Of a stretch of 64,000 nucleotides of DNA, positions 8,463 to 45,893 are shown one piece after another. Position 1 is the first letter of the stretch; each line of letters begins with the position of its first letter. Both the position numbers and the translations under genes were made by a program. Below the pieces are notes generated by a model. That model was given only the letters and a program-made list of their open reading frames with translations, searched no databases and was not told the DNA's origin. The DNA comes from an uncultured bacterium (GTDB lineage: Bacteria > Patescibacteriota > Doudnabacteria > UBA920), in NCBI GenBank assembly GCA_963749445.1, contig CAVVMJ010000010.1, positions 117,738-181,737 of the forward strand, given 5' to 3'.

Positions 8463-8834
8463 ATGGCTGACAAATTGGAGCAGGAAGTAAGCGAATACGC
8501 CAAGCTGGCCAAAGAAAATTCCAATATTGACGTGGCCAGTCTGATGCTGCACGCCCTCAATGAAAAATCCAACAAAGTTTCCTCCAAAATGAAATGGTGG
8601 GTCTACATGTTATCGGTTGGCCTCCCGATGGTCGGTTTCTTATTTGCCGCGTATTATTACTTTTTTAGCGACAAAGATGACGCCCAGCAAGTCGCCAATA
8701 TTTGTATCTTTCTTTCCATCCTCTGCGTGGGCATATTTTGGATAACCGGAAAAATCATGTTGTCAGGAAGCGGCACCAGTTTGAACCAGATAGAACAAAT
8801 CACGCCGCAGGAAATACACGACACCATTCAGTAG
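8463..8834 (+). CDS. small membrane protein, hypothetical
   Basis: ORF with two hydrophobic helices; no recognisable family. Confidence 0.5.
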   Translation: MADKLEQEVSEYAKLAKENSNIDVASLMLHALNEKSNKVSSKMKWWVYMLSVGLPMVGFLFAAYYYFFSDKDDAQQVANICIFLSILCVGIFWITGKIMLSGSGTSLNQIEQITPQEIHDTIQ

Positions 8835-8950
8835 TAATCGCAAATATACAAATTCAAACAAATATACAAATCCGATGTCGGCTGAATTTCCTGTAAGCTA
8901 TAACTCATGGCTATTTGTATATTTGTGTTGATTTGTATATTTGAGAACAC
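8831..8950. repeat. MITE family 3 copy (GTAGTAATCGCAAATATACAAAT ... ATTTGTATATTTGAGAACACTAC)
   Basis: Palindromic AAATATACAAAT words. A second copy lies at 20319-20440 with the same ends. Confidence 0.7.
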
Positions 8951-8955
8951 TACCT

Positions 8956-10494
8956 ATGCCCAAAGAACTAACGATTGTCCACATCGCTTCCGAATGTTCG
9001 CCTTTTGCCAAAATCGGCGGACTGGGCGACGTAGTTTCCGCGCTGCCCAAGGCTCTGTCCGGTCTCGGACATAAGGTGGCGGTCATTTTGCCGCTGTACG
9101 AGGGCGTCAAAAAACAAAATTTGGTTTTGCGGGATATTTTGGAAACCGAAGTCAGCCTGCTCGGCAAAAATTTTTACGCCGGGCTCAAACAATGCGAAAC
9201 CGGCGATGGCGTCTCAATTTTTTTTGTTGATAACGAACAATTTTTCGGCAAACGGAACAATATTTACGGCTACGAGGATGATGGCTTGCGGTTTTTATTT
9301 TTTAATTTGGCCAGCCTCACCCTCTTGGATATGGCGCTCGGCCAAAAAATTCCGCCATTTGAACAAGGCAATATTGACATTCTGCACTGCCACGACTGGC
9401 ACGCCGGACTCATTCCCCAGCTGCTGCATTGCAATCACAGATTTGATCATATCACAGAAGTTGCCACCACGTTTACCATCCACAACCTGGCCTTTCAAGG
9501 CACGAACGACTGGTGGGCGGTACCGAAAAATAAACGGGATATGGGGCACGGCGACCCCACGGCCAAAGGCGTTAATCCCAAATACTTAAACTTTACCCGC
9601 CGCGCGATTTTGCACGCGGACGTGATTAATACGGTCAGCGAGCGCTACGCCGCCGAAATTCTCACGCCCAAATTCGGCCATGGGCTGGACAAGTTGCTAA
9701 AAGCCAGGAAAGACCGCGTGTTTGGCATCATTAACGGCGTGGATTACGCGGTATTTAACCCCCAGTTTGACCAATACATTTACGAAAAATTCGGCGCCGA
9801 TACCATTGAAAAAAAATTGGACAACAAGCTCAGGTTCCAAAAAGAAATCGGCTTGGAGGAAAATAAAACCATCCCGCTCATCGGCATGGTCAACCGGCTC
9901 ACCGAACAAAAAGGCTTTGAGCTGATGATGCAGCTTATGCCCAATTTGCTCCGCCTGCCTCTGCAGTTGGCCGTGGTCGGCAGCGGCGACCGGGGGTACT
10001 TAAAATTTTTCCGCGCGGCTTCCCGCCGGCACCCGGAAAAAATCGCGGTCTGCTCGCCTTTTACCGAGGAAATGGCCGCCAAAGTTTACGCGGCGTCCGA
10101 TATGTATTTAATGCCGTCGCGCTTTGAACCCTGCGGCATTTCACAATTGATATCTTTGCGCTACGGCAGTGTGCCCATTGTCCACGAAACCGGCGGCCTG
10201 CACGACACCATTTCCGATTTTGACTCGCGCTCCGGCCGCGGCAACGGCTTTGTGTTTTCTTCCTACACCGAAGAAGATTTTTTGATTGCCGTAGTCCGGG
10301 CTTTGGAAAATTACCACTACAAAGACGCCTGGCGCGCTTTGGCCAGTTCGGGCATGAAGGAATCTTTTTCCTGGGACCTGCCGGCCCAAAAATATTTGCA
10401 GTTGTACCAGCTGGCGATAAAGAAAAAGAAGACTGATGAAAAACCAAAAAATATCATCAAAAAAGTTTTTGATTTGGTCGCGGAACGGGTATGA
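8956..10494 (+). CDS. glgA: glycogen/starch synthase (GT5)
   Basis: MPKELTIVHIASECSPFAKIGGLGDV (K-x-GGL motif); ~513 aa; ends with a TGA stop. Confidence 0.9.
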   Translation: MPKELTIVHIASECSPFAKIGGLGDVVSALPKALSGLGHKVAVILPLYEGVKKQNLVLRDILETEVSLLGKNFYAGLKQCETGDGVSIFFVDNEQFFGKRNNIYGYEDDGLRFLFFNLASLTLLDMALGQKIPPFEQGNIDILHCHDWHAGLIPQLLHCNHRFDHITEVATTFTIHNLAFQGTNDWWAVPKNKRDMGHGDPTAKGVNPKYLNFTRRAILHADVINTVSERYAAEILTPKFGHGLDKLLKARKDRVFGIINGVDYAVFNPQFDQYIYEKFGADTIEKKLDNKLRFQKEIGLEENKTIPLIGMVNRLTEQKGFELMMQLMPNLLRLPLQLAVVGSGDRGYLKFFRAASRRHPEKIAVCSPFTEEMAAKVYAASDMYLMPSRFEPCGISQLISLRYGSVPIVHETGGLHDTISDFDSRSGRGNGFVFSSYTEEDFLIAVVRALENYHYKDAWRALASSGMKESFSWDLPAQKYLQLYQLAIKKKKTDEKPKNIIKKVFDLVAERV

Positions 10495-10948: not shown

Positions 10949-12364
10949 ATGTTCTGGGCCAACTTTCTCCACATCTACCAGCCGCCGACGCAAAAACCCT
11001 ACTGGGTCAAACGCGTGGCCGAAGAGTCCTACCGGAAAATTTTTGCCGGGCTTTTGGCCACGCCCAGCGCCAAAGTCACTATGAACATCAACGGCGTGCT
11101 TTTGGAGCTGCTGGATAAAAACGGCTGCGGAGACATTTTGGAAAGCATCAAAAAACTTTTGGACAAAAACCAGCTGGAACTGGTAGGCTCGGCCAAATAC
11201 CACGCCATGCTGCCGTTTTTGCCTGAACGCGAAATTGTCAGGCAAATCCAACTGAACGAACAAACTTTAAAAAACTATTTGGGATCATCGCTGTCATTAA
11301 AAGGGTTTTTCCCTCCGGAAATGGCTTTTGACCCCAAGCTGGTGCCGATTATTTCCTCCTTGGGCTACAAATGGATTATTTGCGATGAGCTGTCTTTCCC
11401 TGCGCCCGGACAAAAACCCCAGTACGACCGCATTTATACCGATGCGCAAAACCCTTCCGTGGCTTTATTTTTCCGCGAGCGGCACATGAGCTGGGTCATC
11501 CTTTCCGGCCAGGTCGGCACCGGCCAGCTTTTGGTTTCCAGCCTGGGCGATCGGCTTAAAAAAAACGAATTCCTGCTTACGGCCATGGACGGCGAAACTT
11601 TTGGCCACCACCGGCCGGGATTGGAACAGCTGTTGTTTGAAATTTTTAATGCCGATAAACTAAAAACGGTCCGGATGTCGGAACTGTTTGACTTATTTCC
11701 CACGCGCGAAGCCCTCACTCCGCGTCCCTCCACCTGGGCGTTAATGGAAAAAGATCTGGAAGAAAAAAAACCGTTCTCGCGCTGGCAGGATCCGGACAAT
11801 ATCATCCATCAATTGCAATGGCAGCTGACCGATTTGGCGATAAACACCGTGGAGCAGGCGGACGAGCGTGCGCCCGGATTTCCCGAGGCACGCCAAACTT
11901 TGGACAGGGCGCTGCATTCCGACCAGTATTGGTGGGCCTCGGCGCGGCCGTGGTGGAGTTTGGAAATGATCGAACTCGGCGCCAAGGAACTTTATGACGC
12001 GGTGCTGCTTACGCCGGGAATTTCCGACGAAACGCGCGAGCTGGCCAGGCATTTGTACCACACCATTGTGTTCACGGGTTTTGACTGGCAGCGCTCCGGA
12101 CTGGTGGACGAGCTCTCCCGCCGGGAAGACGAAGCCGTAAGGCAGCGCACGGACATCGGCATCCCCAAACTGCCCCGGGCCGAAGTGGAAAAAATGGTTA
12201 CCGGCCTGCAAAAAGAAATGGCGGCCGTGGCGGCCGCGCAGGAATACGAGCGCGCGGCGCAAATCCGCGACCGTATTAAGGAACTGCGCGGTTATGTTTC
12301 GGATGACGGCTCTGCATTAAAAACTTCCGATGAGGGCAATCGGGAGTTCAAGTTGAATCCTTAA
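10949..12364 (+). CDS. GH57-family glycoside hydrolase (amylase / branching-enzyme type) with C-terminal UVR-like motif
   Basis: N-terminal NFLHIYQPP (GH57 HxHQP signature). C-terminal AQEYERAAQIRDRIKELRG resembles a UvrB/C UVR helix. Confidence 0.75.
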   Translation: MFWANFLHIYQPPTQKPYWVKRVAEESYRKIFAGLLATPSAKVTMNINGVLLELLDKNGCGDILESIKKLLDKNQLELVGSAKYHAMLPFLPEREIVRQIQLNEQTLKNYLGSSLSLKGFFPPEMAFDPKLVPIISSLGYKWIICDELSFPAPGQKPQYDRIYTDAQNPSVALFFRERHMSWVILSGQVGTGQLLVSSLGDRLKKNEFLLTAMDGETFGHHRPGLEQLLFEIFNADKLKTVRMSELFDLFPTREALTPRPSTWALMEKDLEEKKPFSRWQDPDNIIHQLQWQLTDLAINTVEQADERAPGFPEARQTLDRALHSDQYWWASARPWWSLEMIELGAKELYDAVLLTPGISDETRELARHLYHTIVFTGFDWQRSGLVDELSRREDEAVRQRTDIGIPKLPRAEVEKMVTGLQKEMAAVAAAQEYERAAQIRDRIKELRGYVSDDGSALKTSDEGNREFKLNP

Positions 12365-12365
12365 A

Positions 12366-12404
12366 AAACAATTAACGATTAACAATTGACAATTAACATA
12401 AAAC
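12366..12404. repeat. left arm of a caattaacgattaac palindrome enclosing four-helix-bundle copy 2
   Basis: aacaattaacgattaacaattgacaattaac vs the reverse complement of 12781-12815, aacaattgacgattaacgattaacgattaac. Confidence 0.7.
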
Positions 12405-12815: not shown

Positions 12816-14273
12816 TTGTTTATGAATGTGCTATTCGCCGCGGCCGAATGCGCGCCGCTGGCCAAAGTCGGAGGCTTGGGAGACGTCATTGGCTCTTTGC
12901 CCAAAGCCTTAAAACAAATTGGCGTTGACGCGCGGGTGATTTTGCCGAGGTATAAAAATATCCGGCTGCCTACGGAAAGTAAATACCAACCGATAAAAAT
13001 TCTGGTAACTTTTAACGACCAACCGATGTCAGTTACGGTCTACCAAACCACCTTGCTCGAAAGCAGCATTATTTTGTATCTGTTGGAAGAGCCGGCGATA
13101 TTCGGCAGCGGCACGGTTTACGAAACAACCGATGCCACGCCGGGTAGCGAAGAGGAAATAAAAAAATTCCTGTTTTTTTCCCAGTGCGTCGCGGAATTCC
13201 TAAAACAAAAAATCTGGCAGCCCGATGTCCTGCACGCGCACGATTGGCACCTTGCCCTCACTCCCCTTTTAATCAAATTGGCAAAACTCCCAATCCCGAC
13301 CTTGCTGACCATCCACAATCTGGCCATGCAGGGTTTGGCCTCGGCTGAAAGTCTGGAGGCTTTGGGCGGAAATTTAATCGGCCAGCCGTCCTTGCGCCAA
13401 GATTTGGCCAAATCCGGCAAAATTAACCTGCTGCGGCAAGGTATTTTGCACGCCGACGCGGTCAGCACGGTCAGCCCCACTTATGCCAAGGAAATTACCG
13501 CCGCGGAATTTGGCGAAGGTTTAGAAGCTGATTTAAACAAACTGGATAATATTTACGGCAATCTAAACGGCCTTGACGAGTCGGTTTGGAATCCGGCAAC
13601 TGACCGGCTTTTAGCCAAACCTTATGATAAATCTGCGCCGGAACTCAAACTGCAAAACAAATCAGCTCTGCAAAAATTACTTGGACTAAAATCCGCCGAT
13701 GATGTCCCGCTCATTGGGATCGTCTCCCGCCTGACCGGCCAAAAAGGTTTTGATTTGCTTGAACCCATAAGCAAAGCGCTGACAACTTTGGATTTCCAGA
13801 TGATAATTTTGGGCGTGGGCGAGCCCGCAATAGAAAACTTTTTTGCCGATCTTTGCCGCAAACATCCCCAACGGTTCACCTTGCAAAAAAAATTTGACGA
13901 GCGCCTGGCCCACCAAATTTACGCGGGCGCCGATATTTTCCTGATGCCCTCGCGTTTTGAACCCTGCGGCCTTGGCCAAATGATCGCCATGCGCTACGGC
14001 AGCCTGCCGCTGGTTCGCTCAACCGGCGGGCTAAAAGATACCGTAATTAATTTAGCGGATAATTTAAGCAACGCGGATTTCGCCACGGGGTTTGTGTTTG
14101 ACGATTATGATCCTTTGGCGCTTTTGGCGGAATTAAAACGCGCTCTTAATCTTTATCACCAGGACCAAAAAATCTGGGACCGGATGAGCCAAAACGCCAT
14201 GGCCAAAGATTTATCGTGGGCTAATTCAGCAAAAAAATACTCTGAACTCTATCAAAAAATTATTAATTCATAA
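12816..14273 (+). CDS. glycogen synthase paralog (GT5)
   Basis: MFMNVLFAAAECAPLAKVGGLGDVIGSLP; collinear with GlgA. Confidence 0.85.
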   Translation: MFMNVLFAAAECAPLAKVGGLGDVIGSLPKALKQIGVDARVILPRYKNIRLPTESKYQPIKILVTFNDQPMSVTVYQTTLLESSIILYLLEEPAIFGSGTVYETTDATPGSEEEIKKFLFFSQCVAEFLKQKIWQPDVLHAHDWHLALTPLLIKLAKLPIPTLLTIHNLAMQGLASAESLEALGGNLIGQPSLRQDLAKSGKINLLRQGILHADAVSTVSPTYAKEITAAEFGEGLEADLNKLDNIYGNLNGLDESVWNPATDRLLAKPYDKSAPELKLQNKSALQKLLGLKSADDVPLIGIVSRLTGQKGFDLLEPISKALTTLDFQMIILGVGEPAIENFFADLCRKHPQRFTLQKKFDERLAHQIYAGADIFLMPSRFEPCGLGQMIAMRYGSLPLVRSTGGLKDTVINLADNLSNADFATGFVFDDYDPLALLAELKRALNLYHQDQKIWDRMSQNAMAKDLSWANSAKKYSELYQKIINS

Positions 14274-19788: not shown

Positions 19789-20316
19789 CTAAAGTTCTGC
19801 CGATTTATTTTTTCTCAACACCAAAAACCACACCAAATAAACTATTGCCAAAAGCGAATAGTTAACCAGCATAAACAGCGGGTGTGCCCAGGACACGCCG
19901 TGGTCAAATTTATAGCTTGATAGAGGAAACAAAAACGGGGTTTCGTAAAAGCCTTTGTGGCTGGGAATATCTATCAAGATGTGTAAAACCCAGCCCCACA
20001 TTGGCCAATAGGTTTTGCCCTTTCGGATAACCATAACAATAACCATAACGATGGCAAAAATCACCAGGCTGTGCGTGTAGTTGTAACCGATTGACGCAAA
20101 TTGGAACGGCCAGGCATTACTGGCAAAAGCCGCGGGGCCGAACTCCCGCGCGCCTTTGGTCAAAACCATGTATATCCCATACAAAAAAGCCGGAGTGAAC
20201 ACCGCCAAATCCGGCAGGACTCCGAAAGCTACGGCAATGTAGCGCTGCAGCTTTTCCTTGCGGTATTTTTTGTAGAACACCGCGTTGGTCCACAGCGCGT
20301 GGGCAAATACATCCAT
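19789..20316 (-). CDS. membrane-bound metal-dependent hydrolase-like protein (YdjM/DUF457-like)
   Basis: Polytopic membrane protein with conserved His residues. The likely start is MDVFAHALW; the ORF-track N-terminal extension overlaps the MITE family 3 copy. Confidence 0.5.
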   Translation of the reverse strand: MDVFAHALWTNAVFYKKYRKEKLQRYIAVAFGVLPDLAVFTPAFLYGIYMVLTKGAREFGPAAFASNAWPFQFASIGYNYTHSLVIFAIVMVIVMVIRKGKTYWPMWGWVLHILIDIPSHKGFYETPFLFPLSSYKFDHGVSWAHPLFMLVNYSLLAIVYLVWFLVLRKNKSAEL

Positions 20317-20318
20317 AG

Positions 20319-20440
20319 TAGTAATCCCAAATATACAAATCAACACAAATAAACAAATAACTATCAATCCTTGTGTTTAGCAAAACAGGCGACTGTTACC
20401 GGATTTGTATATTTGTCTAAATTTGTATATTTGCGAACAC
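20319..20440. repeat. MITE family 3 copy
   Basis: gtagtaatcccaaatatacaaat ... atttgtatatttgcgaacactactgtagta. Confidence 0.7.
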
Positions 20441-20859
20441 TACTGTAGTAAATTTAAGTTCAAATCCGAATCCAACCCGCGACTCATTTCGCCGTCCAAT
20501 TTAATCAAAAAAATCTCGCAGGTGGCCGAAATTACCGCTTTGAACACGTGGCCGCCGAGCATACTTAAATCACGGCGGCTAAAGCTGCCGTGGACGTGCA
20601 GTGCCGGCTTGCCCGCCGATAGGGCGATATTGCCAATGAGCGAAACAATCTCCAACTGCTCGGTAATAACTTGCTTGGTATATGATTTCGCGGCGAAATC
20701 GTAAACCCCAATCTCCAGCTCGCCGCAAGCGCCAATGGCCGTAAACGAGGCCGCGTCAATATCATACTGTCTGGCGAATTCCAAAAAGCCGGCGAAGACT
20801 TCTTCACCTTTGTCTATACGGATGATATATCTCTGGTTATCCTTTAAAATTACTTTCAT
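20440..20859 (-). CDS. PPC/DUF296-domain protein (PD1-like DNA-binding fold)
   Basis: 139 aa; EIVSLIGNIA...PALHVHGSFS.. core typical of PF03479. Confidence 0.6.
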   Translation of the reverse strand: MKVILKDNQRYIIRIDKGEEVFAGFLEFARQYDIDAASFTAIGACGELEIGVYDFAAKSYTKQVITEQLEIVSLIGNIALSAGKPALHVHGSFSRRDLSMLGGHVFKAVISATCEIFLIKLDGEMSRGLDSDLNLNLLQ

Positions 20860-20862
20860 GTC

Positions 20863-20929
20863 TTCTACTAAATACGAAAGAGTCTAAAAATACTAAACTT
20901 GAATTTTCGATTTAGTACTTTTAGTAAAT
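20863..20929. repeat. tactaaatac-family hairpin, split by the IS insertion
   Basis: cttctactaaatacgaaagagtctaaaaatactaaa...tttagtacttttagtaaat; the rest of the right arm (tttagtagag) resumes at 21642. Confidence 0.6.
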
Positions 20930-20936
20930 TTAGTAT

Positions 20937-21651: not shown

Positions 21652-22035
21652 TCATGCGAGCTTAACCGAGCGAGCCAGCACGTCCTTGACTTTTTGGATG
21701 ATGTCATCCACCGATTGATCACTCTTGAGCAAATAATCCACGGCTCCGGCCTCCACGATTTTGCTGATGGTCTCCACGTCGCCGATGTTGGTAAGCACCA
21801 CTACCGGCACTTTGGCCGTAGTGGGGTTGGCGCGCAATTCCCAAAGCACGGAAATACCATCCAGCTTGGGCATCATAATGTCAAGCAAAACCAAATCCGG
21901 AACAATTTCCTTGCATTTGGCCACGGACTCTTCGCCATCATAGGCCGGAACCGGATTGAAACCTGCTGTCTTAAGCGCCTCGCACAACGAATTGGAAATC
22001 AATTTGTCGTCCTCGGCCACAACAATGGTTGTCAT
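21652..22035 (-). CDS. single-domain response regulator (CheY-like receiver)
   Basis: MTTIVVAEDDKLI...LVLLDIMMPKLDG...KSDQSVDDII. Confidence 0.85.
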   Translation of the reverse strand: MTTIVVAEDDKLISNSLCEALKTAGFNPVPAYDGEESVAKCKEIVPDLVLLDIMMPKLDGISVLWELRANPTTAKVPVVVLTNIGDVETISKIVEAGAVDYLLKSDQSVDDIIQKVKDVLARSVKLA

Positions 22036-22075
22036 AAAATTTTTTGGGTTAAAAATTAAGTTTTAAAAATTTTAT

Positions 22076-22152
22076 TTCCTACGAACCTACGAACCTTTAC
22101 CGAACTACGAACTCACTAGCTTTCGCAGTTCGTACCGTTCGTAAGTTCGTAG
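22076..22152. repeat. ctacgaac-word hairpin (copy 1)
   Basis: cctacgaacctacgaacc...ggttcgtaagttcgtag; a near-identical copy lies at 23835-23909. Confidence 0.75.
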
Positions 22153-22155
22153 AAT

Positions 22156-23823
22156 TTAAGCAATAGGAAGCGAAAAATAAAACGTCGTACCCAAATTTTC
22201 GCCGGCCGACTCGGCCCAAATTTTGCCGCCGTGGGCCTCCACAATGCCGCGGCTGACCACCAGGCCCAGGCCCGTGCCTTTGCGCGAGCGGTCGCCGCTT
22301 TGCAGCTGCTTGAATTTGGAAAACAGCTGGTTTAAGTCTTCGCGGGCCACGCCGATGCCGCTGTCTTTGACCCCGACTACGACCTGCTTTTCGGCAGCGT
22401 CCAGGCTGACATTAACGTCAATTTGCCCGCTGTCGGTATATTTAATGGCATTGCTCAGCAAATTGCCCAAAACCTGGGAAACCCTAACCCTATCAAATTT
22501 TACCATATATTTGTCCGGAGCGGTACACCCAATGGTCAAATGCTTGGCTTCCGCCTGCGGAGCAAAAGCTTTAGCCTGATCCTTAATGACATCCACCAAA
22601 TCATAGACTTGCAAATTCAGCTCAAATTTGCCCGCTTCAATTTTGGCCACGTCCAGCAGGTCATTGACCAGTTCCAGCATATTGTTGGACGCGGTTTCAA
22701 TGGTCATAACCGTGTCTTTGACTTTACCCGGATCCACCCCGGCTTGGCTGGCCGCCAAATTTTTTAGCATTGATTCGGACGACCAGCGCACGGCGGTCAG
22801 CGGCGCGCGCAATTCGTGGACCATCATAGCCGTAAATTCCTGCCGGGTTTTTTCCAGGGTTTTTTCCGTGGTGATGTCGTGGAAAACCACGCTGGCGCCC
22901 AATTTTTCCCCGGCCGAAGTTTTTACCGGCGACACGCCGACTTCCAGGGCTTTATCTTTTAAATAAACTTCCTGGATCAGCATGGGCTTGTCCTCGCTCA
23001 AAGACTGTTCAATTTTGGTGCGGATGTCAACTTTTCCGGACAGACCGTCTACAATGTCAAACATAGTCAATGGTTTGCCGGCAGGCAAACCAAATAATCC
23101 CACGGCCGCGGGGTTATAAACCATTAAGCGGTTATCAATACTGACCATAACCACGCCGTCAGTCAAAGAATAAATAACAGCCGACAGCTTGCCCTTTTCG
23201 TTTTCCAGCACGCTCTGCAGTTTGGATACGGCTGTGGCCGCCTGGTTGGTGATGGCATACAAAATAGAGGCCTGAGCCTCGCCGTAGCGCCCGCGCTCTA
23301 TGGAAGCCACGTTAATCATTCCCACCAGCCGGTTGGAAATTACCACCGGCAGGTTAAAAAACGACTGCACGCCGGCTTTGGAATTATCATCCAAAATATT
23401 GCCGGTAATGCTTTCGTCCAGCTTTTGCGGCTTGACCTCACCGTCCAAAATGGCCGCGAACGACAGCAGCATTTTTTCCTTGACCTGTTCAATGAACTTG
23501 TGGCTCACCGAGCGCTCCACGTGGCATTTGAACACCACTGTGCCGTCTTCGCCCAAAAGCATATAAGCCACGGTGTCGTAATCCAAAAGGTTACCCAAAC
23601 TGCTGGTAATAATATCTATAATTTTGTTGGTGTCCAGAGAATAGCCAATACGCTCGTTGATTTCCTTGAGCACTTCGGCCTGATAAACTTTTTGCTGAAG
23701 TTCCAAGCCCTGGCTGGCTTCCTGGCGCAAATATTTGCGCTCGCGCAAGGACGTGTAAATATAGCCGACAAGCACGACGGCCAGCATGGCAAAATCAATG
23801 GCAAGCAGCAGGTTGAGGATCAT
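22156..23823 (-). CDS. sensor histidine kinase (TM, GAF/PAS, HisKA, HATPase_c)
   Basis: H-box MVHELRAPLTAV; N, G1 and G2 boxes (GTGLGLVVSRGIVEAHGG). Confidence 0.85.
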   Translation of the reverse strand: MILNLLLAIDFAMLAVVLVGYIYTSLRERKYLRQEASQGLELQQKVYQAEVLKEINERIGYSLDTNKIIDIITSSLGNLLDYDTVAYMLLGEDGTVVFKCHVERSVSHKFIEQVKEKMLLSFAAILDGEVKPQKLDESITGNILDDNSKAGVQSFFNLPVVISNRLVGMINVASIERGRYGEAQASILYAITNQAATAVSKLQSVLENEKGKLSAVIYSLTDGVVMVSIDNRLMVYNPAAVGLFGLPAGKPLTMFDIVDGLSGKVDIRTKIEQSLSEDKPMLIQEVYLKDKALEVGVSPVKTSAGEKLGASVVFHDITTEKTLEKTRQEFTAMMVHELRAPLTAVRWSSESMLKNLAASQAGVDPGKVKDTVMTIETASNNMLELVNDLLDVAKIEAGKFELNLQVYDLVDVIKDQAKAFAPQAEAKHLTIGCTAPDKYMVKFDRVRVSQVLGNLLSNAIKYTDSGQIDVNVSLDAAEKQVVVGVKDSGIGVAREDLNQLFSKFKQLQSGDRSRKGTGLGLVVSRGIVEAHGGKIWAESAGENLGTTFYFSLPIA

Positions 23824-23834
23824 TTTGGTTTCAA

Positions 23835-23909
23835 TCCTACGAACATACGAACTTTTCGAACTACGAACTCACAAGCCTTCGTAGTTCGTACCGTTCGTAA
23901 GTTCGTAGG
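23835..23909. repeat. ctacgaac-word hairpin (copy 2)
   Basis: Direct copy of 22076-22152 on the other side of the kinase gene. Confidence 0.75.
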
Positions 23910-23914
23910 AGACG

Positions 23915-24181
23915 TTATAGCCCTTTAAGCGTGGGGTATTTTTCCAGCAAAGTGTTCAAGGTCATTTGCGCGATCTGGCCGGATAAAGCCATGTATTCGT
24001 TGGCCACGCCTTTTAGCACCAGCTGCGGATCGCCGTCCATATCCAAAACCGTGCCGTCGTCAGCCACCTTTAACCCCGGAATCTTCCTGGCCTTGTCCAG
24101 GGCAATGTTCGGCCCCAGCACCACCATTTGCTTTTGGATTAAATCGGTCAGCATTTGTTTATATTCTGTTTCGTTGGCCAT
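23915..24181 (-). CDS. hypothetical protein
   Basis: 88-aa ORF; no recognisable family. Confidence 0.4.
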   Translation of the reverse strand: MANETEYKQMLTDLIQKQMVVLGPNIALDKARKIPGLKVADDGTVLDMDGDPQLVLKGVANEYMALSGQIAQMTLNTLLEKYPTLKGL

Positions 24182-24234
24182 AAAATTCCTTATTTCGATA
24201 AATGATAATTTTAGATGGTTATATTATAACACAC

Positions 24235-24321
24235 TTCTACTAAATACTAAAACCACTAAAAATACGAAACCCGAAATTAATCAGCTTTAGTATTTTTAGT
24301 TTCTTTCGTATTTAGTAGAAG
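24235..24321. repeat. tactaaatac-word hairpin (intact)
   Basis: cttctactaaatactaaaaccactaaaaatacgaaa...tttcgtatttagtagaag. Confidence 0.7.
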
Positions 24322-24322
24322 A

Positions 24323-25834
24323 TCATAGCTCTTTGACGCGCCCAAAACCCACCGAGTCGCGGAAGGCTTTGCCGGCGGCCATCATTTGCGCCCGCAAAAC
24401 GGTAAATTCCCCGTATTTGTCGTTAATGTCATCCAGCGCTGCCACCAAAGCGCGCTGCCGCTCAATATCGCCGAATAAAGACATCTGATGAATATACGGG
24501 CGCAGGCCGGCCACGGTTACGCCGATCAATTTTATCCCTGCGACATTTATCGGATATATCCCCGTAGGGGCGGGTTTCAAACCCGCCCCTACGCCGGGCT
24601 TAATCATTTTTAGGCATTCCAGGAAAATCTCCCGCCCGTCCTGCAAAAAATATCTCAACTTTTTGCTGTCGCCGAAACCCTGATAATCTTTGTCGTGATA
24701 ATAACAGCTGATGACATTCCCCATTAACTGTTTCTTGCGCAACCGCCGGCCCACCATTTCGCAAAGCTTGTACAGCACGGGCACAAAAAATTCCGGTTTG
24801 CGGAATTCCTGCGGCAAGGTGTACATATGTCCCATGGATTTGATTTCTTGTTCCTGATGAACCTCGGCTTTCCAAGTGCCTTCCAGTTGGCCGAGATTAT
24901 ATAAATGATGACCCGCGACCCGACCAAAACGCGCCACCAAGTGGCTGCGAGGGAAATCCCGCAAGTCTTTTAAGGTTTTGATCCCCAGCTCGTTTAAATT
25001 CCGCTCCTGCCGCCGCCCGATGCCCGGGACGTCGGTAAGTTTAAGCTGATGATACAAATCACCCTTAGATAAAACAAGGCAATCGGCGCTGTAGGGGCGG
25101 ATATCATCCGCCCTTTGTCGTGGGAGGATAATATCCTCCCCTACGCAACCATTGTGAATCACCGTCAACCCATCCGGTTTTTTTAAATCCGACGCAATCT
25201 TGGCCAAAGCCTTATTATCGGCAATCCCAACGCTGCACCTGAGCCAATCCCCAACTTCGGTTTTAAACCGCCGCTTTATTTCCCGCGCAATGTTTGCCGC
25301 CTCTTCAAAGGGATCAATCGAAAATTGTCCCATCCCGACCAACGAGTGCATCCGACCCGTTCGGTTCAACTCAGGGTCGCCCTGAGCGTAGCCGAATGGG
25401 CGAGGAGTGGAGGGATCTGTCTGATATAATAGATCCCTCGGCTCATCCTCAGGTGCATTCGGATTCGCTCGGGATGGCGAAAAAAAATTCCTAACATTGC
25501 ACACCCTCGTCAAATCCAAAAAACACTCGTCAATGCTGTACTTTTCCACCTTGTCCGTATAATCGCCCACGACTTTTAAAAACCTCCTGGTGTAAAACCG
25601 GTATCGTTCGGCGTGAGTTTGGGTCAAAATAATCTTAGGATATAACTTTTTGGCTTCCCACACCGGCGTGCCGGTTTTGATGCCCCATTTTTTGGCCTCC
25701 ACAGACGCCGCGATAATAATGCCGCCCAAATGCTCGCACACGCCCACGGGCTTTCCGCGCCAACTCAAATTATCCTGCTGCTCCACAGAGGCAAAATACG
25801 AGTTCATATCCAGATGCATTATTATGGACTGCAT
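24323..25834 (-). CDS. dinB: DNA polymerase IV (Y-family) carrying three in-frame palindromic insertions
   Basis: MHLDMNSYFASVE...SIDECFLDLT...CSVGIADNKALAKIAS...; 503 aa against the usual ~360. The extra segments coincide with the repeats at 24563-24591, 25091-25144 and 25330-25500. Confidence 0.8.
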   Translation of the reverse strand: MQSIIMHLDMNSYFASVEQQDNLSWRGKPVGVCEHLGGIIIAASVEAKKWGIKTGTPVWEAKKLYPKIILTQTHAERYRFYTRRFLKVVGDYTDKVEKYSIDECFLDLTRVCNVRNFFSPSRANPNAPEDEPRDLLYQTDPSTPRPFGYAQGDPELNRTGRMHSLVGMGQFSIDPFEEAANIAREIKRRFKTEVGDWLRCSVGIADNKALAKIASDLKKPDGLTVIHNGCVGEDIILPRQRADDIRPYSADCLVLSKGDLYHQLKLTDVPGIGRRQERNLNELGIKTLKDLRDFPRSHLVARFGRVAGHHLYNLGQLEGTWKAEVHQEQEIKSMGHMYTLPQEFRKPEFFVPVLYKLCEMVGRRLRKKQLMGNVISCYYHDKDYQGFGDSKKLRYFLQDGREIFLECLKMIKPGVGAGLKPAPTGIYPINVAGIKLIGVTVAGLRPYIHQMSLFGDIERQRALVAALDDINDKYGEFTVLRAQMMAAGKAFRDSVGFGRVKEL

Positions 25835-25837
25835 AAC

Positions 25838-25893
25838 AATTTACGATTAACGATTAACAGTACCAAAGGTTAATTGTCAATTGTTAATCGTTA
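25838..25893. repeat. caattgttaatcgttaa-word hairpin (gene-less form of the element around four-helix-bundle copy 2)
   Basis: acgattaacgattaacag taccaaagg ttaattgtcaattgttaatcgt. Confidence 0.7.
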
Positions 25894-26008
25894 AAAGTTA
25901 TTCGTATTCTAATAGTATACGATTGTTCACCTTTTATCAACCCTAAGTTATCCACACTCCTTTGCCAAGGCTTCAGAGTGCAAGCAAATAAAAAACGCGC
26001 GCCGTGGA

Positions 26009-26045
26009 AGGGATTGACCTTACCCACGGCGCCCGCGATAAATTG
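26009..26045 (-). terminator. rho-independent terminator downstream of the GNAT gene
   Basis: cgcgggcgccgtggg...cccacggcgcgcg followed by a T-run on the minus strand. Confidence 0.5.
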
Positions 26046-26062
26046 CTTCTCCTGTCCTCCGT

Positions 26063-26977
26063 TTACTCGCCGTTATTGCTGAACTGGATAAACCAGGCTT
26101 CGTCCGACCCACGACCGGGACGGAAACCTACCCCCTCAAACAAAGGCTTCTTTGGGGTGATGGTCAAAAGTTCTCCTAATTTGAGTTCCAAAGCCCAGTT
26201 CACGCAACGTTTGACAAGCTCTTTTCCAATCCCCCTCCCTGAGAACCCGCGGAGCACCACAAGAGTCCTGACCTCGCCGACATGACGTTTACCCTTCTTC
26301 CGCCGGAATTGTGTTAGCGCTATGGACCCAACCACTTCACCCCCAGCAATCGCAACGATGAACTCCGACTTCCGGGGGAAAAGCTTAGTACCCGGTTGAA
26401 TCAAAGTGCGTCTGTACATCCGGGCTAGCTTCTTAATCCCCTCCCAGTGGAAACTGGTTGTTGCCTTGACAAACTTTACCCCAACGATGGGTTTGAGTTC
26501 GAAAGGCTGACGGCCCTTTAAGGACATCAGCAACGCGTGCTTTTGCCCATGCAACCGCCGAAAGCCCACTTTGCGGAAAAGGGCCTTGTCCTGCTCATTG
26601 ATCGTGGCTAAGACCTGGTAAATTCCCAAATCCCACGCACGATCGACACAAAACTGGACAAGGATTTCGGAGAACCGCTCTCTGTACCAGGCGTTCCTGA
26701 AAGTAAAACTCCGAATCTCTCCGTATTTAAAGTTGCGTTTGTAGGTGAGCAGGGCACAACAACCCTTGACTAGGCGTCTTTTGCCTCGCACCAGAAGGAC
26801 GATAAAGTCCGACCAATGAGGCAAGTTTGTATGCTGCAGATTTGGATCTTTGAGAACTAGCCGTTGAATCGCAGGCCAGTCCCGTTTCTTTGCCGGCCTG
26901 ATAACGATCATCGTCTTTTCCTCCCGCGAAACTTCGCCGGCTGGCAAAATCTCGCGGCGGGAAAAAATCATCCACAA
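26063..26977 (-). CDS. tandem GNAT-family N-acetyltransferase
   Basis: Two acetyl-CoA-binding motifs (...IAGGEVVGSIAL... and ...RGFSGRGIGKELV...). The start may be the internal MIVIRPAKK. Confidence 0.6.
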   Translation of the reverse strand: MWMIFSRREILPAGEVSREEKTMIVIRPAKKRDWPAIQRLVLKDPNLQHTNLPHWSDFIVLLVRGKRRLVKGCCALLTYKRNFKYGEIRSFTFRNAWYRERFSEILVQFCVDRAWDLGIYQVLATINEQDKALFRKVGFRRLHGQKHALLMSLKGRQPFELKPIVGVKFVKATTSFHWEGIKKLARMYRRTLIQPGTKLFPRKSEFIVAIAGGEVVGSIALTQFRRKKGKRHVGEVRTLVVLRGFSGRGIGKELVKRCVNWALELKLGELLTITPKKPLFEGVGFRPGRGSDEAWFIQFSNNGE

Positions 26978-28059: not shown

Positions 28060-28140
28060 ATATTTTTATTTCGTTAGATTAATTTTGATTTATTATAGGA
28101 TAGTTTGTCGCAAATAGCAAATTCCACGCTCTTCACGACG

Positions 28141-28230
28141 AAATTGCGAGGAGCCGGGGCTTTATCCGGCGACGAAGCAATCCCGATAAATATCAACTGG
28201 GCTGCTTTGGATGCACTCGCAGCTTCCATT
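28141..28230. mobile_element. MITE family 2 copy (AAATTGCGAGGAGCC.GGGCTTTATC.GGCGACGAAGCAATCCCGATA ... GCACTCGC)
   Basis: Shared 50-nt 5' block with the copies at 31240, 38811 and 31498 (inverted). Confidence 0.75.
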
Positions 28231-31216: not shown

Positions 31217-31239
31217 CTGAAATTTTTTTGTATAACGTA

Positions 31240-31336
31240 GAAATTGCGAGGAGCCAGGGCTTTATCTGGCGACGAAGCAATCCCGATATTTTTTGGGATT
31301 GCCGCGCCCCTCGCTGCATCGGGGCTCGCAATTTCC
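31240..31336. mobile_element. MITE family 2 copy
   Basis: gaaattgcgaggagccagggctttatctggcgacgaagcaatcccgata...ggctcgcaatttcc. Confidence 0.8.
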
Positions 31337-31344
31337 ACTAATTT

Positions 31345-33225
31345 TCAAACTGATTTTCTAATATCTATAATCCGCAGTTTCGCCTGCTCGTATCCATTCC
31401 ATCCGTCGCGGATGAGTTCCGCCGCAACGTCTACATTATCGCCCACTTTTAAAGTTTTGGCAAAATCGCCGCAGTTGAACATTATGGCCGGTATGATGAG
31501 CCTTGTCATTCCTGAAATCGCGAGTGCAGCCGAAGCGATCCAGTTCTTTAGCAGGATTGCTTCGCCCTCGGCTGCACTCGGGCTCGCAATTTCATCGTTT
31601 GAGCTTAACTGCATCTGCAAGTGCTGCTGGCTAGTTCCAACCAGCCGGACGGAATTGATTTTTAAATTGCGGATGAGAAACTTGGGTTTGGGGTTGCCCA
31701 CGCCGAGGGGCTCTAATTGCTGCAACAATTGACAATTAACAATTGACAATTGACTGCCATCCAGTTCTGCTTCCAATAATAACTGATGATGTAAATCAGT
31801 TTCAGAAAGGCTTGCCTCCGCGTACTCCAAAATCTTTTTATAAAATTCCTCGTATTCCGCGGTTTTCAAAGTCAGTCCCGCGGCCTGCTGGTGCCCGCCG
31901 AATTTTACAAGATGTTCGGAAGCAAATTTTAATGCCTCAATAATATTAAATTCCCCAACCGTGCGCGCCGAGCCGGTAGATTCCGTTTCCCCTCTATCTA
32001 AAATAATCGTCGGCTTGTAAAATTCTTCCGCAATGCGACCCGCCACCAAACCGACCACGCCTTTGGGCCAATCCCGCCCTAGCAGAATCAAAACTTTGCG
32101 GTCTTGGTATTTTACCGCCTGCTCGCGCGCTTCACTTAGCAACTGCCCGGTCAAATCCTGCCGGCGGCGGTTAATTTGCTCCAAGGCCAAGGCTTTTTGC
32201 TGGGCGGCCAACGCATCGGTTTCCATTAAAAGATGTAGGGCGACATTGGCGTGCTCCAACCGGCCCGCGGCATTCAGCCGCGGCGCAATGATAAAGCCAA
32301 GTGTATAAGTATCCATCGGTTTCCAGAAGGCGCCCTCTTGCAGACCGGCTGATATCATCAGCGCTTTCAAACCAACCCACCGCGTCTTAGCCAAAACCTT
32401 GAGCCCGTATTTTACCAAAATCCGGTTTTCGCCGAGCAGACTGTGGCAGTCCGCCACCGTGCCGATGGCGACAAGGTCTAACAGCCATTTTTCCCATCCT
32501 TGAATAACGGATGATCCGCGTGTAAATCCGCGTAGCCGATCCGCGTGTAAATCCGCGGCGCGCAGCAACCCACAGGCCAATTTAAACGCCACGCCCACCC
32601 CAGTTAAGTCGTGATACAGATATTTGTCGCCTGAATTTTTTGGATTTATCAGCGCGTAGGCTTTCGGCAGTTCGCCGATGATTTCATGGTGATCGGTAAT
32701 GATTAAATCGATATTGTTCGCGCGACAAAAATTAGCGGCGTCAACCGAGTTTGTGCCGCAGTCAACGGTAATGATTATCCTTGATCCTCCATCCTTAATC
32801 TTTGACAATGCGTCAACGTTGACCCCATAACCTTCGGCAAACCTGTCGGGGATGTAACTTTCAACCTCAACGCCCAAATAACGAAACGTTTGCTGCAACA
32901 CGGCATTGGCCGTAACCGCATCCGCGTCGTAGTCGCCATAAATACAAATTCGCTGATGTTTATCAATCGCTTCCCAAATCCTGTCCACCGCCTTTTGCAT
33001 ATCCCCAAACAAAAACGGGCCATGCAAATTTTCATACTTGGGATATAAAAATTCCTCAATCTGATTTTTCTCGGTTAATCCTCGATTAAACAACAATTGA
33101 GACAACAATCGCAAATCCCCTTCCCCTCTGGGGGAAGGTGGCCGGAGGCCAGATGAGGGTTCTCTGTGAATATTTGTCTGATTTTCGCCAAAATCTCTTC
33201 CGTCACCTGCGATTTTAGTTTCCAA
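31345..33225 (-). CDS. recJ: single-stranded-DNA exonuclease RecJ (DHH/DHHA1), with in-frame MITE family 2 copy near the C-terminus and a disturbed N-terminus
   Basis: DHH motifs (ITVDCG...ITDHHE). Residues DEIASPSAAEGEAILLKNWIASAALAISGMTR are encoded by repeat 31498-31596. A GC-rich repeat at 33110-33170 separates an upstream MPKNWKLKSQVTEEILAKI segment in another frame. Confidence 0.75.
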   Translation of the reverse strand: METKIAGDGRDFGENQTNIHREPSSGLRPPSPRGEGDLRLLSQLLFNRGLTEKNQIEEFLYPKYENLHGPFLFGDMQKAVDRIWEAIDKHQRICIYGDYDADAVTANAVLQQTFRYLGVEVESYIPDRFAEGYGVNVDALSKIKDGGSRIIITVDCGTNSVDAANFCRANNIDLIITDHHEIIGELPKAYALINPKNSGDKYLYHDLTGVGVAFKLACGLLRAADLHADRLRGFTRGSSVIQGWEKWLLDLVAIGTVADCHSLLGENRILVKYGLKVLAKTRWVGLKALMISAGLQEGAFWKPMDTYTLGFIIAPRLNAAGRLEHANVALHLLMETDALAAQQKALALEQINRRRQDLTGQLLSEAREQAVKYQDRKVLILLGRDWPKGVVGLVAGRIAEEFYKPTIILDRGETESTGSARTVGEFNIIEALKFASEHLVKFGGHQQAAGLTLKTAEYEEFYKKILEYAEASLSETDLHHQLLLEAELDGSQLSIVNCQLLQQLEPLGVGNPKPKFLIRNLKINSVRLVGTSQQHLQMQLSSNDEIASPSAAEGEAILLKNWIASAALAISGMTRLIIPAIMFNCGDFAKTLKVGDNVDVAAELIRDGWNGYEQAKLRIIDIRKSV

Positions 33226-33269: not shown

Positions 33270-33297
33270 GTAGGGGCGGGTCTAGACCCGCCCCTAC
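33270..33297. repeat. short perfect palindrome gtaggggcgggtctagacccgcccctac
   Basis: Same family as 24563-24591 and 25091-25144 (inside dinB) and 53803-53831. Confidence 0.75.
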
Positions 33298-36900: not shown

Positions 36901-36957
36901 ATGTTTTATTTCAACGCCTCAATGCCCGAAAGTTTCCGGCCGGCCTGACCCAATTTG

Positions 36958-36990
36958 GACAAATACTATCATACTACTGTGCATGATAGT
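36958..36990. repeat. hairpin-containing direct repeat A (ggacaaatactatcatactactgtgcatgatagt)
   Basis: Identical (one mismatch) to 37519-37552. Contains the palindrome ACTATCAT..ATGATAGT. Confidence 0.75.
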
Positions 36991-37534
36991 TTTTATCCAT
37001 TTTTAAAAGTCGGGTTAATTCTTTACTTAACTTAGTCTTCTCCTTCATCTGCTCAAGCGCCATGGTCAATTTTCGGCGTTGCTTGGCATTCGCGTTCCTG
37101 ATAATTTCATCCAACACCAATTCTGGCCAGTAATACATAGGATATCTCTTTTTGACTTTACTCCAAGATAAAGCACCATCATCAGATTTAGCCGGCTTTT
37201 CTTTTATTCTCCCGGCGATAACTCGATACCCTTCTCCGTACAAATTAAGCCAGGTGTGGACTCTCGCTATGGTGGTGTTACTGACTTTCATTTCCCTTTG
37301 GATGTCCTGATAGGTGCAATCCTCCAAAAGCAAACGGGCAATTTGCAGCCTCCGCGCAAGCATCACCACTTCGCCCTCCGACAACAAATCCTTTATAAAA
37401 TTTGCCGCCTCAACGGGATTCTTAATGGCCGCTAAGGCTTTTGCAAAACCAATAAACAATTCCTGCTGCTGTTCCTTTGTTAAATGTTTCTTTGCATCGT
37501 ATTTGCCCATAAAATTTTGGACAAATACTATCAT
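36974..37534 (-). CDS. TrpR/YerC-YecD-family DNA-binding protein with C-terminal extension
   Basis: ...EQQQELFIGFAKALAAIKNPVEAANFIKDLLSEGEVVMLARRLQIARLLLEDCTYQDIQREMKVSNTTIARV... matches the Trp-repressor-like fold family. The start and stop codons lie inside the two repeat copies. Confidence 0.65.
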   Translation of the reverse strand: MIVFVQNFMGKYDAKKHLTKEQQQELFIGFAKALAAIKNPVEAANFIKDLLSEGEVVMLARRLQIARLLLEDCTYQDIQREMKVSNTTIARVHTWLNLYGEGYRVIAGRIKEKPAKSDDGALSWSKVKKRYPMYYWPELVLDEIIRNANAKQRRKLTMALEQMKEKTKLSKELTRLLKMDKNYHAQ

Positions 37535-37552
37535 ACTACTGTGTATGATAGT
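37519..37552. repeat. hairpin-containing direct repeat A' (ggacaaatactatcatactactgtgtatgatagt)
   Basis: Direct copy of 36958-36990. Confidence 0.75.
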
Positions 37553-37576
37553 ATTTAACCACTTTTTGCCATTACT

Positions 37577-38801: not shown

Positions 38802-38810
38802 AAAAAATTA

Positions 38811-38896
38811 TGAATTTGCGAGGAGCCAGGGCTTTAACTGGCGACGAAGCAATCTCATTAAATATTGGGATTACTTAGGCTGCACTCGCAATTTCA
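38811..38896. mobile_element. MITE family 2 copy
   Basis: gaatttgcgaggagccagggctttaactggcgacgaagcaatctcat...ctgcactcgcaatttc. Confidence 0.8.
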
Positions 38897-39190
38897 ACCG
38901 AGTAATTTAGAATATAGATCTTCCCAATTAGGATTCATTTTATTTATTAAATCTATTTTCTTTTGCCTGGAACCGCCTTTGATTTGTTTTTCTCGTTCCA
39001 ACGCGGTATACATCTCCTCAAAAACTTCGTAATATACCAGCTTGTCTACGTTATATTTTTTAGTAAACCCCTTCACTATATGCTGTTTGTGTTGCCATGT
39101 TCTCTTTATTAGTCCGTTTGTAAATCCAGTATATAAAACCGTATGTCGTTGGTTGGTCAATATATAGATATAGAACTGTTCCGATATCAT
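38894..39190 (-). CDS. GIY-YIG nuclease-family protein (stand-alone, ~98 aa)
   Basis: FYIYILTNQRHTVLYTGFTNGLIKRTWQHK...YYEVF...ALEREKQIKGGSRQKK: GIY..YIG..R..E..N core. Confidence 0.75.
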   Translation of the reverse strand: MISEQFYIYILTNQRHTVLYTGFTNGLIKRTWQHKQHIVKGFTKKYNVDKLVYYEVFEEMYTALEREKQIKGGSRQKKIDLINKMNPNWEDLYSKLLG

Positions 39191-41433: not shown

Positions 41434-41443
41434 AGGTTAGTGA

Positions 41444-41490
41444 ATTAGTGAATTAGAGAGTTTACGTTCTAATTCTCTAATTCTCTATTT
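41444..41490. repeat. gtgaattag-word hairpin
   Basis: gttagtgaattagtgaattagagag...ctctaattctctaatt; related copy at 62613-62684. Confidence 0.65.
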
Positions 41491-41503
41491 TTCTTTTTAC
41501 TGA

Positions 41504-45360: not shown

Positions 45361-45812
45361 TTAAAACTCTGCTGCTCTATCCTTTTTATCTTATCTATTC
45401 TCCGCTGATGCCTGCCGCCTTCAAACCCGGTCTTGAGCCACAAGTCCACCGCCGCTTTGGCCTGCGCAACGCTGACAAATCCAAAACCCAAAGACAGCAT
45501 ATTGGCGTCATTGTGCTGCCGGGCCAGTTCAACAATTTTTAAATCCCCGCCCTGGTACAACGCGCAGCGGATACCCCGAACTTTGTTGGCCACTATGGCT
45601 TCGCCGTTGCCGCTTAAACCCAAAACTATTCCGCGGTTACCGTCCACCGACGCGGTTTTAACCGCGCACGGATAAATAAAATCCGGATAGTCGTCGTCCT
45701 TGTCATATTTAAACGGCCCAACATCCTCAACTTCCAAATTCTGCTCCTTAAGGTATTGGCAGAGCGTATTTTTTAATTCAAACCCGGCGTGGTCGCTGGC
45801 GATGTATATCAT
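45357..45812 (-). CDS. rpiB: ribose-5-phosphate isomerase B
   Basis: MIYIASDHAGFELK...GIVLGLSGNGEAIVANK... Confidence 0.85.
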   Translation of the reverse strand: MIYIASDHAGFELKNTLCQYLKEQNLEVEDVGPFKYDKDDDYPDFIYPCAVKTASVDGNRGIVLGLSGNGEAIVANKVRGIRCALYQGGDLKIVELARQHNDANMLSLGFGFVSVAQAKAAVDLWLKTGFEGGRHQRRIDKIKRIEQQSFK

Positions 45813-45893
45813 GTTAGCGTTTAGCGTTTAGCGTTTAGCGTTTAGCAGTCCACTGTGTGGCTAAATGCTAATCGCTAATTGCTAACTGCTAAT
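45813..45893. repeat. ttagcg-word palindrome
   Basis: gttagcgtttagcgtttagcgtttagcag tccactgtgtgg ctaaatgctaatcgctaattgctaactgctaa; a related copy lies at 63270-63362. Confidence 0.7.

Follow-up and report, generated by a model that had tools for sequence, protein, structure and literature searches.

Palindromic repeats probably inserted in frame into three loops of the DinB polymerase of an uncultured member of the Patescibacteria

Results

A dinB gene with three extra segments

The window analysed here, meaning the whole 64,000-nucleotide (64-kb) stretch of contig CAVVMJ010000010.1 from an uncultured bacterium of the Patescibacteria (candidate phyla radiation, CPR), carries a dinB gene for a Y-family DNA polymerase IV with extra segments at three sites, here named A, B and C. 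A preliminary description of this DNA had set the 503 aa of its DinB against a usual length of about 360 aa, and had attributed the excess to three in-frame palindromic insertions behaving like Rickettsia palindromic elements (RPE). The length was confirmed, but the baseline was not. For this clade it lies at about 413-430 aa, which leaves the window protein about 90 aa longer than the shortest ortholog, a smaller excess than had been stated. The gene, its inserts and their relatives elsewhere in the window are the following.

24323-25834, minus strand: dinB open reading frame (ORF), Y-family DNA polymerase IV, 503 aa, intact
25316-25489, minus strand: codons 116-173, the whole site A excess over the shortest orthologs, from the N113-P175 spacing and the PDB gap at 112-180
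25330-25477: site A insert, a GC-rich 148-bp element resembling a MITE (miniature inverted-repeat transposable element), read through as about aa 120-168
55594-55762: full-length intergenic counterpart of the site A element, inverted relative to it, from self-comparison
3797-3943: incomplete copy that has modules in common with both the 55.6-kb copy and the dinB element, 78% identical to 55563-55704 (E 3e-23)
25091-25144: site B insert, an inverted doublet of GTAG-tagged repetitive extragenic palindromic (REP) units with the tags outermost (a head-to-head, HH, heterodimer), 54 nt, 18 codons
24564-24592: site C insert, a perfect GTAG...CTAC palindrome of 29 nt, GTAGGGGCGGGTTTCAAACCCGCCCCTAC, translated as VGAGLKPAPT (aa 415-424)
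33270-33297: intergenic member with the same 12-nt arms and a CTAG centre, 28 nt, lying 22 nt past the iPGM stop codon and upstream of recJ
53803-53831: intergenic variant GTAGGGAACGGTTTGAAACCGTTCCCTAC with three compensated arm changes, 33 nt past a gene's stop and upstream of dnaX
DinB product: junction-spanning peptide of an insert, ...KPGVGAGLKPAPTGIY...

The product matches the Pfam domains IMS (2.3e-38), IMS_C (1.9e-11) and IMS_HHH, has solved DinB, Dpo4 and Pol kappa chains as strong PDB matches, and its top database relatives are labelled Patescibacteria or Candidatus Doudnabacteria. An AlphaFold (AF2) model built on the ortholog alignment has a mean predicted local distance difference test (pLDDT) score of 83.8 with a confident core, and Foldseek superposes it on Dpo4 ternary complexes with a target-normalised template-modelling (TM) score of 0.85 and a root-mean-square deviation of 3.2-3.4 Å. 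D102 and E103 do not vary in 120/120 orthologs and align with Dpo4's catalytic carboxylates; the DinB core is 57-76% identical to orthologs. Because of this confident, Dpo4-like predicted fold and the invariant D102/E103, the gene product looks functional.

Aligned with the solved DinB 7yll, the window protein shows gaps at exactly aa 112-180 and 234-261, and the third extra segment, at about aa 415-424 (site C), is seen from the ortholog alignment; the extra segments thus behave as the clean indels that had been expected of them. With the exception of the C-terminal tail, segments with pLDDT <50 are confined to the three inserts (aa 231-234 and 238-241 at site B, aa 415-419 at site C), and the mean pLDDT falls to 45-65 in 10-residue blocks over aa 121-170 (45-64 there), 231-250 and 411-430, regions that are coil-like within the Y-family fold. 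In the model, therefore, the inserts look like disordered, loop-like decorations of the polymerase, in agreement with the surface-loop position that had been proposed.

Repeat DNA at the three sites

Two of the inserts are of REP type, a palindrome at site C and a GTAG doublet at site B, and the third is a MITE-like element of 148 bp. All three insert regions fold far better than shuffled sequence (z -5.1 to -6.0), in keeping with the earlier view that the extra segments coincide with repeat DNA.

The 29-mer of site C did not occur in 100 shuffles and is stop-free in 4/6 phases, one of which it occupies. Its position had been given one base off (24563-24591), and its copies at 33270 and 53803 are indeed members of its family but neither is identical to it, the former differing in the loop and the latter being a compensated variant. 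Both intergenic copies sit in same-strand gene runs and are followed by a promoter-like TTGTAT...TAnAAT, as read by eye. In the whole window the palindromes number three singles and one doublet, or about 4 per 64 kb. The doublet of site B, previously described as a nested variant and confirmed here as an element, consists, as parsed by eye from the sequence, of two 23-nt units (25091-25113 and 25122-25144) separated by an 8-nt spacer, each comprising GTAG, an 8-bp stem and a 3-nt loop, with the GTAG outside its own stem. It encodes VGEDIILPRQRADDIRPY (aa 231-248), is stop-free in 2/6 phases and sits in one of them, and its region folds at -49.3 kcal/mol (z -6.0).

The site A element is bounded by 9-bp terminal inverted repeats (CCATCCCGA / TCGGGATGG at 25330 and 25477, from a three-copy alignment), as is typical of MITEs. 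Its stretch 25326-25488 matches the intergenic 55762-55594 in inverted orientation at 81% over 171 columns (E 4e-36), which bears out the inverted copy reported earlier at 25330-25500; the reported size of about 165 bp in a multiple of three does not hold, since with a core of 148 nt the element itself is not a multiple of three, while the net extra ORF length is. The partial copy at 3797-3943 is outside any credible gene and overlaps only a 97-aa repeat-derived ORF. Site A folds at -78.6 kcal/mol (z -5.8) and is stop-free in 2/6 combinations of phase and orientation, of which dinB uses one.

No known RNA family, intron or ribozyme was found by Rfam (gathering threshold over the window, permissive search of 24200-25950), the output being one tRNA and sub-threshold look-alikes of miRNA hairpins only. 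The inserts and other hairpins within dinB were also considered as intrinsic terminators, and none of them qualifies.

The same loops in orthologs

DinB was compared across 120 orthologs from the Patescibacteria (413-542 aa, from many different samples), whose differences in length cluster at the same three sites.

Site A, N113 to P175: range 5-82 aa, median 21, window 61
Site B, V225 to L260: range 6-76 aa, window 34
Site C, F404 to K435: range 16-51 aa, most often 17, window 30

Outside these sites the protein measures 366-432 aa (median 378). Short or empty sites, for which relatives were to be checked according to the earlier description, are present: site A is reduced to 5 aa in the orthologs P0095, P0096, P0103 and P0110, site B to 6-8 aa in P0103 and P0117-119, and site C is 17 aa in P0003 and P0006 (66% identity). 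The earlier description had named, as the finding that would speak against it, orthologs with the same extra segments and no repeat similarity in their DNA; instead, some have short sites and others different palindromic or repeat DNA at the same three positions. In the dinB locus L001, which encodes a 65% identical protein, site B holds the very same 29-mer, translated in the other open phase as CRGGFQTRPY, and site C a compensated palindrome variant, GTAGGGGAGGGTTTGAAACCCTCCCCTAC. Three further perfect GTAG...CTAC variants occupy site C in L142, L143 and L145, and a decayed one in L144. Site B holds unrelated perfect palindromes in L002 and L142, another GTAG doublet in L143 and GC-rich modular elements in L003 and L007, and the inserts of L003, L007 and L013 have additional copies elsewhere in their own loci. 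Peptides like that of site A were found only in P0044 and P0015, at the same dinB site.

In two cases the dinB palindrome also follows the variant of its own genome. In the window the arms of the dinB palindrome are those of its own copy at 33270, and in L143 the dinB palindrome (GTAGGGTAGGC...) differs from its own two intergenic copies (GTAGGGTAGGG...) by one compensated stem pair and the centre. Such agreement is suggestive of a recent insertion, or of conversion by another copy.

All three dinB inserts appear, from their reading frames, to be translated. If phases were random, the joint chance that all three are stop-free and keep the frame (1/3 per insert) is of the order of 0.003. The alternative that the inserts are not present in the protein, because the gene is a decaying pseudogene, because they are removed or bypassed before or during translation, or because the assembly is faulty at repeats, draws on the metagenomic origin of the sequence, in which repeats are prone to misjoining, and on the predicted disorder of the inserts. 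We consider it scarcely credible, given that frame and freedom from stops are kept in all three, that the core is well conserved with invariant catalytic residues, that no intron or ribozyme family was matched, that the orthologs come from so many samples, and that dinB is intact in 12/12 Patescibacteria loci checked, each from a different genome assembly and with inserts at the same sites.

The order of genes near dinB is conserved in part among these loci. A GNAT acetyltransferase gene lies directly upstream of dinB in the window (21652-26977 compared), L142 and L143. In L144, dinB (5001-6371) is followed by a small ORF and then by genes for a histidine kinase and a response regulator, matched in the window by an 88-aa ORF, a histidine kinase and, presumably, a 127-aa ORF, and is directly preceded by a gene (4580-4948) that matches 23S_rRNA_IVP and, weakly, bAvd. 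The bAvd fold is that of accessory proteins of diversity-generating retroelements, and no such gene stands beside the window dinB. A diversity-generating retroelement was rejected as a source of the variation, which consists in the presence or absence of elements and not in adenine-directed substitution, with no Avd-like gene beside the window dinB.

Symmetry and distribution of the palindromes

In the 28-29-mers the GTAG pairs with a 3' CTAC, so that the repeat is symmetric. Across nine aligned palindromes (eight distinct) and 14 stem pairs, 112/112 cells are Watson-Crick without a mismatch, changes occur on both sides in 7/14 stem pairs, and there are no G-U pairs. The perfect pairing is partly built in, because the sequences had been collected by a palindrome search, while the absence of wobble pairs argues for a symmetry maintained at the level of DNA and not of RNA structure.

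Stems that are perfectly symmetric and changed only on both sides would also be expected if the palindromes had formed locally through template switching at replication, a process that converts imperfect into perfect inverted repeats without a mobile element and is documented to create and maintain perfect hairpins (PMC8794818). A local origin cannot, however, give shared sequence at unlinked sites, and here the identical 29-mer stands at another dinB site in L001, the same arms recur at 33270 and in unrelated metagenomes, and an 81% identical intergenic copy of the 148-bp element lies 30 kb off. We therefore regard template switching as a very improbable origin of the inserts, although it could help to keep the arms perfect.

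The arms GTAGGGGCGGGT...ACCCGCCCCTAC are present in more than 120 unrelated metagenome contigs among the matches listed, and the G+C content of fifteen palindrome-bearing contigs examined ranges from 49% to 69%. In ten metagenome loci where the 29-mer lies deep in long frames it was considered, and rejected, as an in-gene insert: the Pfam domains are all downstream of the palindrome, or there are none. Since they fall outside every recognised domain in the ten loci tested, the metagenome copies are probably extragenic, in GC-rich DNA. In the metagenome contig L031 (WBZM01000040.1, 1440-2010) five GTAG palindromes are arrayed in tandem, in units of 104-134 bp, with degenerate GGTAGGGGCGG repeats ahead of each palindrome, a clustering that recalls the grouped REPs of the literature.

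recJ as a second host gene

A second DNA-repair gene of the window, recJ, has two further in-frame inserts, so that the recurrent, RPE-like insertion proposed earlier extends beyond dinB.

31345-33225, minus strand: recJ ORF, a second DNA-repair gene with in-frame repeat inserts; PDB RecJ 8y30 at E 8e-82, orthologs named RecJ
32491-32565: recJ insert 1, a tandem pair of CGCGGATTTACACGCGGATC that encodes AADLHADRLRGFTRGSS
31513-31600: recJ insert 2, a hairpin element of 88 bp, encoding EIASPSAAEGEAILLKNWIASAALAISGMT, fold -44 kcal/mol
28135-28226, 31235-31358 and 38805-38923: intergenic members of the insert 2 family, from self-comparison

Insert 1 is a clean 20-aa gap against the solved RecJ 8y30; among 63 RecJ orthologs its site is most commonly 16 aa and reaches 61 aa, and its ACGCGGAT word motif recurs in dinB site C of L002 and L007. 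Insert 2 is 70-75% identical to the intergenic 28135-28220, 31273-31335 and 38805-38896. Its site is empty (12 aa) in 48/63 orthologs and measures 43 aa in the window, while 14 other orthologs have 44-65 aa of other repeat-like sequence there, the fillings being translated repeats of several families. By self-comparison, dinB and recJ were the only long genes examined in the window with internal dispersed-repeat matches; the others included glycolytic enzymes, PBP2, MreB, SecY, DnaX, HtrA and a coupling-protein-like ATPase.

A third stretch of recJ, 31708-31755 (SIVNCQLL), is a near-palindrome, CAATTGACAATTAACAATTGACAATTG, 84-90% identical to intergenic word hairpins at 12367 and 25869. As it aligns to RecJ 8y30 without a gap it was not counted as an insert, and may reflect chance or replacement.

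Other repeats of the window

Most intergenic spacers contain long AT-rich hairpins with arms of short tandem words (CTACGAAC, TTAGTGAA, GCTAAAT, AACAATT), some words being common to several hairpins in distant spacers. They look like a terminator-like family distinct from the GC-rich repeats.

24234-24321, 20861-20936, 22077-22159, 23830-23910, 8829-8958 and 20314-20445: intergenic AT-rich word hairpins, first part
41437-41501, 62617-62697, 45806-45910, 63258-63365, 12364-12397 and 25835-25902: intergenic AT-rich word hairpins, second part

Two 51-nt direct repeats (36954-37004 and 37516-37566; 92% identical), each a hairpin, bracket a 186-aa ORF (36974-37534). Several repeats of about 250-500 nt, 58-63% identical, lie within an 863-aa ORF at 4030-6621 and recall a repetitive surface protein, and two glycogen-synthase-like genes (8941-10494 and 12816-14273) are paralogs, about 60% identical over 660 nt.

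Discussion

Taken together, we propose, with a probability of about 0.8, that three loops of a functional DinB hold in-frame, translated insertions of the genome's own small palindromic repeats. Such elements would spread as hairpin-forming DNA, possibly mobilised in trans by an HUH tyrosine transposase by analogy with REPs and their associated tyrosine transposases (RAYTs), although none was found here. Insertions might land widely, with selection purging those that break the frame, introduce stops or hit structured parts, so that only those in a small number of permissive loops, in repair genes that are dispensable or tolerant, would survive. The symmetry of the palindromes would be kept in the DNA and not as an RNA structure, and each copy would track the variant of its own genome through recent insertion or conversion from other copies.

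Several observations weigh against this proposal. The closest ortholog is 67% identical and no near-identical relative with an empty site was found among the orthologs, so that recent mobility is not directly shown. A target-site duplication was not evident at any insert, nor visible in the flanks of the three aligned site A copies. A crude pattern scan for an HUH...Y motif ORF (RAYT/Y1) gave none in the window, 64 kb of genome, or in 17 Patescibacteria loci, and the window showed no insertion sequence. One Y1_Tnp gene occurs in the 120 metagenome loci with the palindrome, flanked by unrelated inverted repeats and 4 kb away from the palindrome. A search for the site A peptide in other proteins returned no candidates and then two weak matches, and hence no RPE-style conserved peptide. 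Furthermore, in 4/5 carriers (the window, L001, L142 and L143) an identical run of ten residues precedes the site C palindrome (eight in L145, P0024), which could reflect one old insertion instead of repeated ones.

This last point belongs to the main rival, namely that the loops are old and vertically inherited, one insertion per site, with hairpins selected for a cis action on dinB (for instance by affecting the stability of the mRNA or pausing, or by binding a protein at a DNA hairpin so that less of a mutagenic polymerase is made), and with the likeness to intergenic copies reflecting a shared function. The shared start at site C with a decayed version in L144, the strong covariation of the stems and the terminator-like position of the intergenic copies right after genes all fit such a history. 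So does the density of strong hairpins, which is 0.55 per kb in dinB vs 0.14 in other long ORFs of the same loci, and 0.42 vs 0.14 per kb (p = 0.02) once the window and the loci chosen for their palindromes are left out. However, RNA structure would tolerate G-U pairs, of which there are 0 in 112 cells, and no in-gene hairpin scores as an intrinsic terminator. The distribution is patchy, with only 17 aa at site C of P0003 and P0006, one site holds different element families in different species, and the dinB copy follows the intergenic variant of its own genome in the window and in L143. The idea of one old insertion per site with a functional cis hairpin is thereby weakened, and we consider it unlikely.

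A bolder version of the insertion model, in which REP-type palindromes are actively targeted to a few repair-gene loops in CPR genomes instead of being just tolerated in them, with existing hairpins serving as landing pads and symmetry maintained by conversion or hairpin-templated correction, seems to us equally doubtful. If it were true, the coding sequence of a mutagenic polymerase and of a recombination nuclease would be a turnover site for mobile hairpins, possibly tuning the mutation rate.

That REPs and RPEs insert in frame, notably into genes of replication and repair, has been reported before from other phyla (PMC3733652), and in this respect the novelty suggested earlier does not hold. 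It does hold for the lineage: our literature searches found no description of such insertion for CPR genomes among the papers covered, those by sequence or peptide string giving irrelevant matches only, and dinB, recJ and CPR genomes are absent from PMC3733652 and its tables. What is new here is thus the lineage, the hosts dinB and recJ, and the recurrent use of the same loops. The length excess of some CPR proteins over their homologs would, in these cases, be repeat DNA read as disordered loops and not new domains, and the unexplained association of REPs with repair and replication genes is extended to two further hosts and to a remote lineage of small genomes. The independent inserts at the same loops of more than 100 dinB and more than 60 recJ orthologs offer a large natural experiment to distinguish neutral, filtered insertion from targeting. 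For annotation, the peptides VGAGLKPAPT, RGGFQTRPY and VIPS...GRDDT inside proteins mark translated repeats.

Among known systems, bacterial MITEs such as ERIC, BOX and those of Anabaena form in-frame fusions (reviewed in PMC10969869). The site A element and recJ insert 2 resemble them in their terminal inverted repeats, internal hairpins, intergenic copies and read-through by the host ORF; they differ in that neither a target-site duplication nor a parent insertion sequence was identified here. RPEs, as summarised in PMC10969869, are palindromic repeats of about 100-150 bp found in frame in unrelated genes of a small genome in a fold-compatible manner (Ogata et al. 2000, 2002), with 44 insertions in R. 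conorii. The 148-bp element in dinB and the 88-bp element in recJ are in-frame palindromic repeats of this kind, whereas the site A element has no peptide conserved across many host proteins and there are two host genes in 64 kb against the 44 insertions of R. conorii. The likeness drawn here to RPEs is one of behaviour.

In the REPIN/RAYT system, REP doublets are mobilised by a domesticated Y1 transposase, and the GTAG head is linked to RAYT recognition (PMC2817692, PMC8266576). The inverted doublet of REP-like units at site B can likewise fold into one long hairpin, but the motif scan found no RAYT in the available sequence and no RAYT association was seen in 120 metagenome loci. In the metagenome locus L090, a Y1_Tnp (IS200-like) gene at 657-1601 is fused to the C-terminal helix-turn-helix of DnaA, and its inverted repeats contain CAATAACGCAAGCCTGACCCC. 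This fusion resembles the tyrosine transposases of the REP literature that are flanked by terminal inverted repeats, and was rejected as a mobiliser of the palindromes, its own inverted repeats being unrelated to the GTAG palindrome on the same contig.

The family we consider for the two REP-type inserts is that of the GTAG-tagged REPs (Di Nocera, De Gregorio & Rocco 2013, PMC3733652), which are short GC-rich stem-loops with a terminal GTAG, occurring as singles and HH inverted dimers. According to that study, sub-families differ by complementary stem changes, copies are mostly extragenic and lie just downstream of unidirectional or convergent genes, and many REP families lack an obvious transposase. 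Intragenic REPs encode about 7-30 aa in frame in known genes, many of which serve replication or repair (uvrA, uvrB, recB, polA, a ligase gene and the error-prone dnaE2) and in some species are the only REP-tagged genes; two Xanthomonas species have different REPs at much the same position in recB, and RPE-4 and RPE-6 of R. conorii are equated with CGTC REPs (PMC3733652). The repeats described here differ in their pairing: the tag of the 29-mers forms pairs with a 3' CTAC, where the definition of the family asks for one that is unpaired and terminal, and the G-T pairing often reported in PMC3733652 is lacking. At about 4 per 64 kb they seem locally scarce, use of the same three loops recurs across more than 100 orthologs, and a RAYT flanked by REPs was not found in the sequence available. 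They agree in occurring both as singles and as an HH doublet, in their size, as the palindromes of 28-29 nt and the site B units of 23 nt are short stem-loops within the 20-40 bp of the family, in the complementary stem changes (7/14 pairs) and in the extragenic position of the 33270 and 53803 copies, 22 and 33 nt past stops. Moreover, GTAG-1 of P. putida translates to VGAGLPA, as compared with VGAGLKPAPT here, and in both cases copies lie in frame in repair genes that include one for an error-prone polymerase, dnaE2 there and dinB in the present window.

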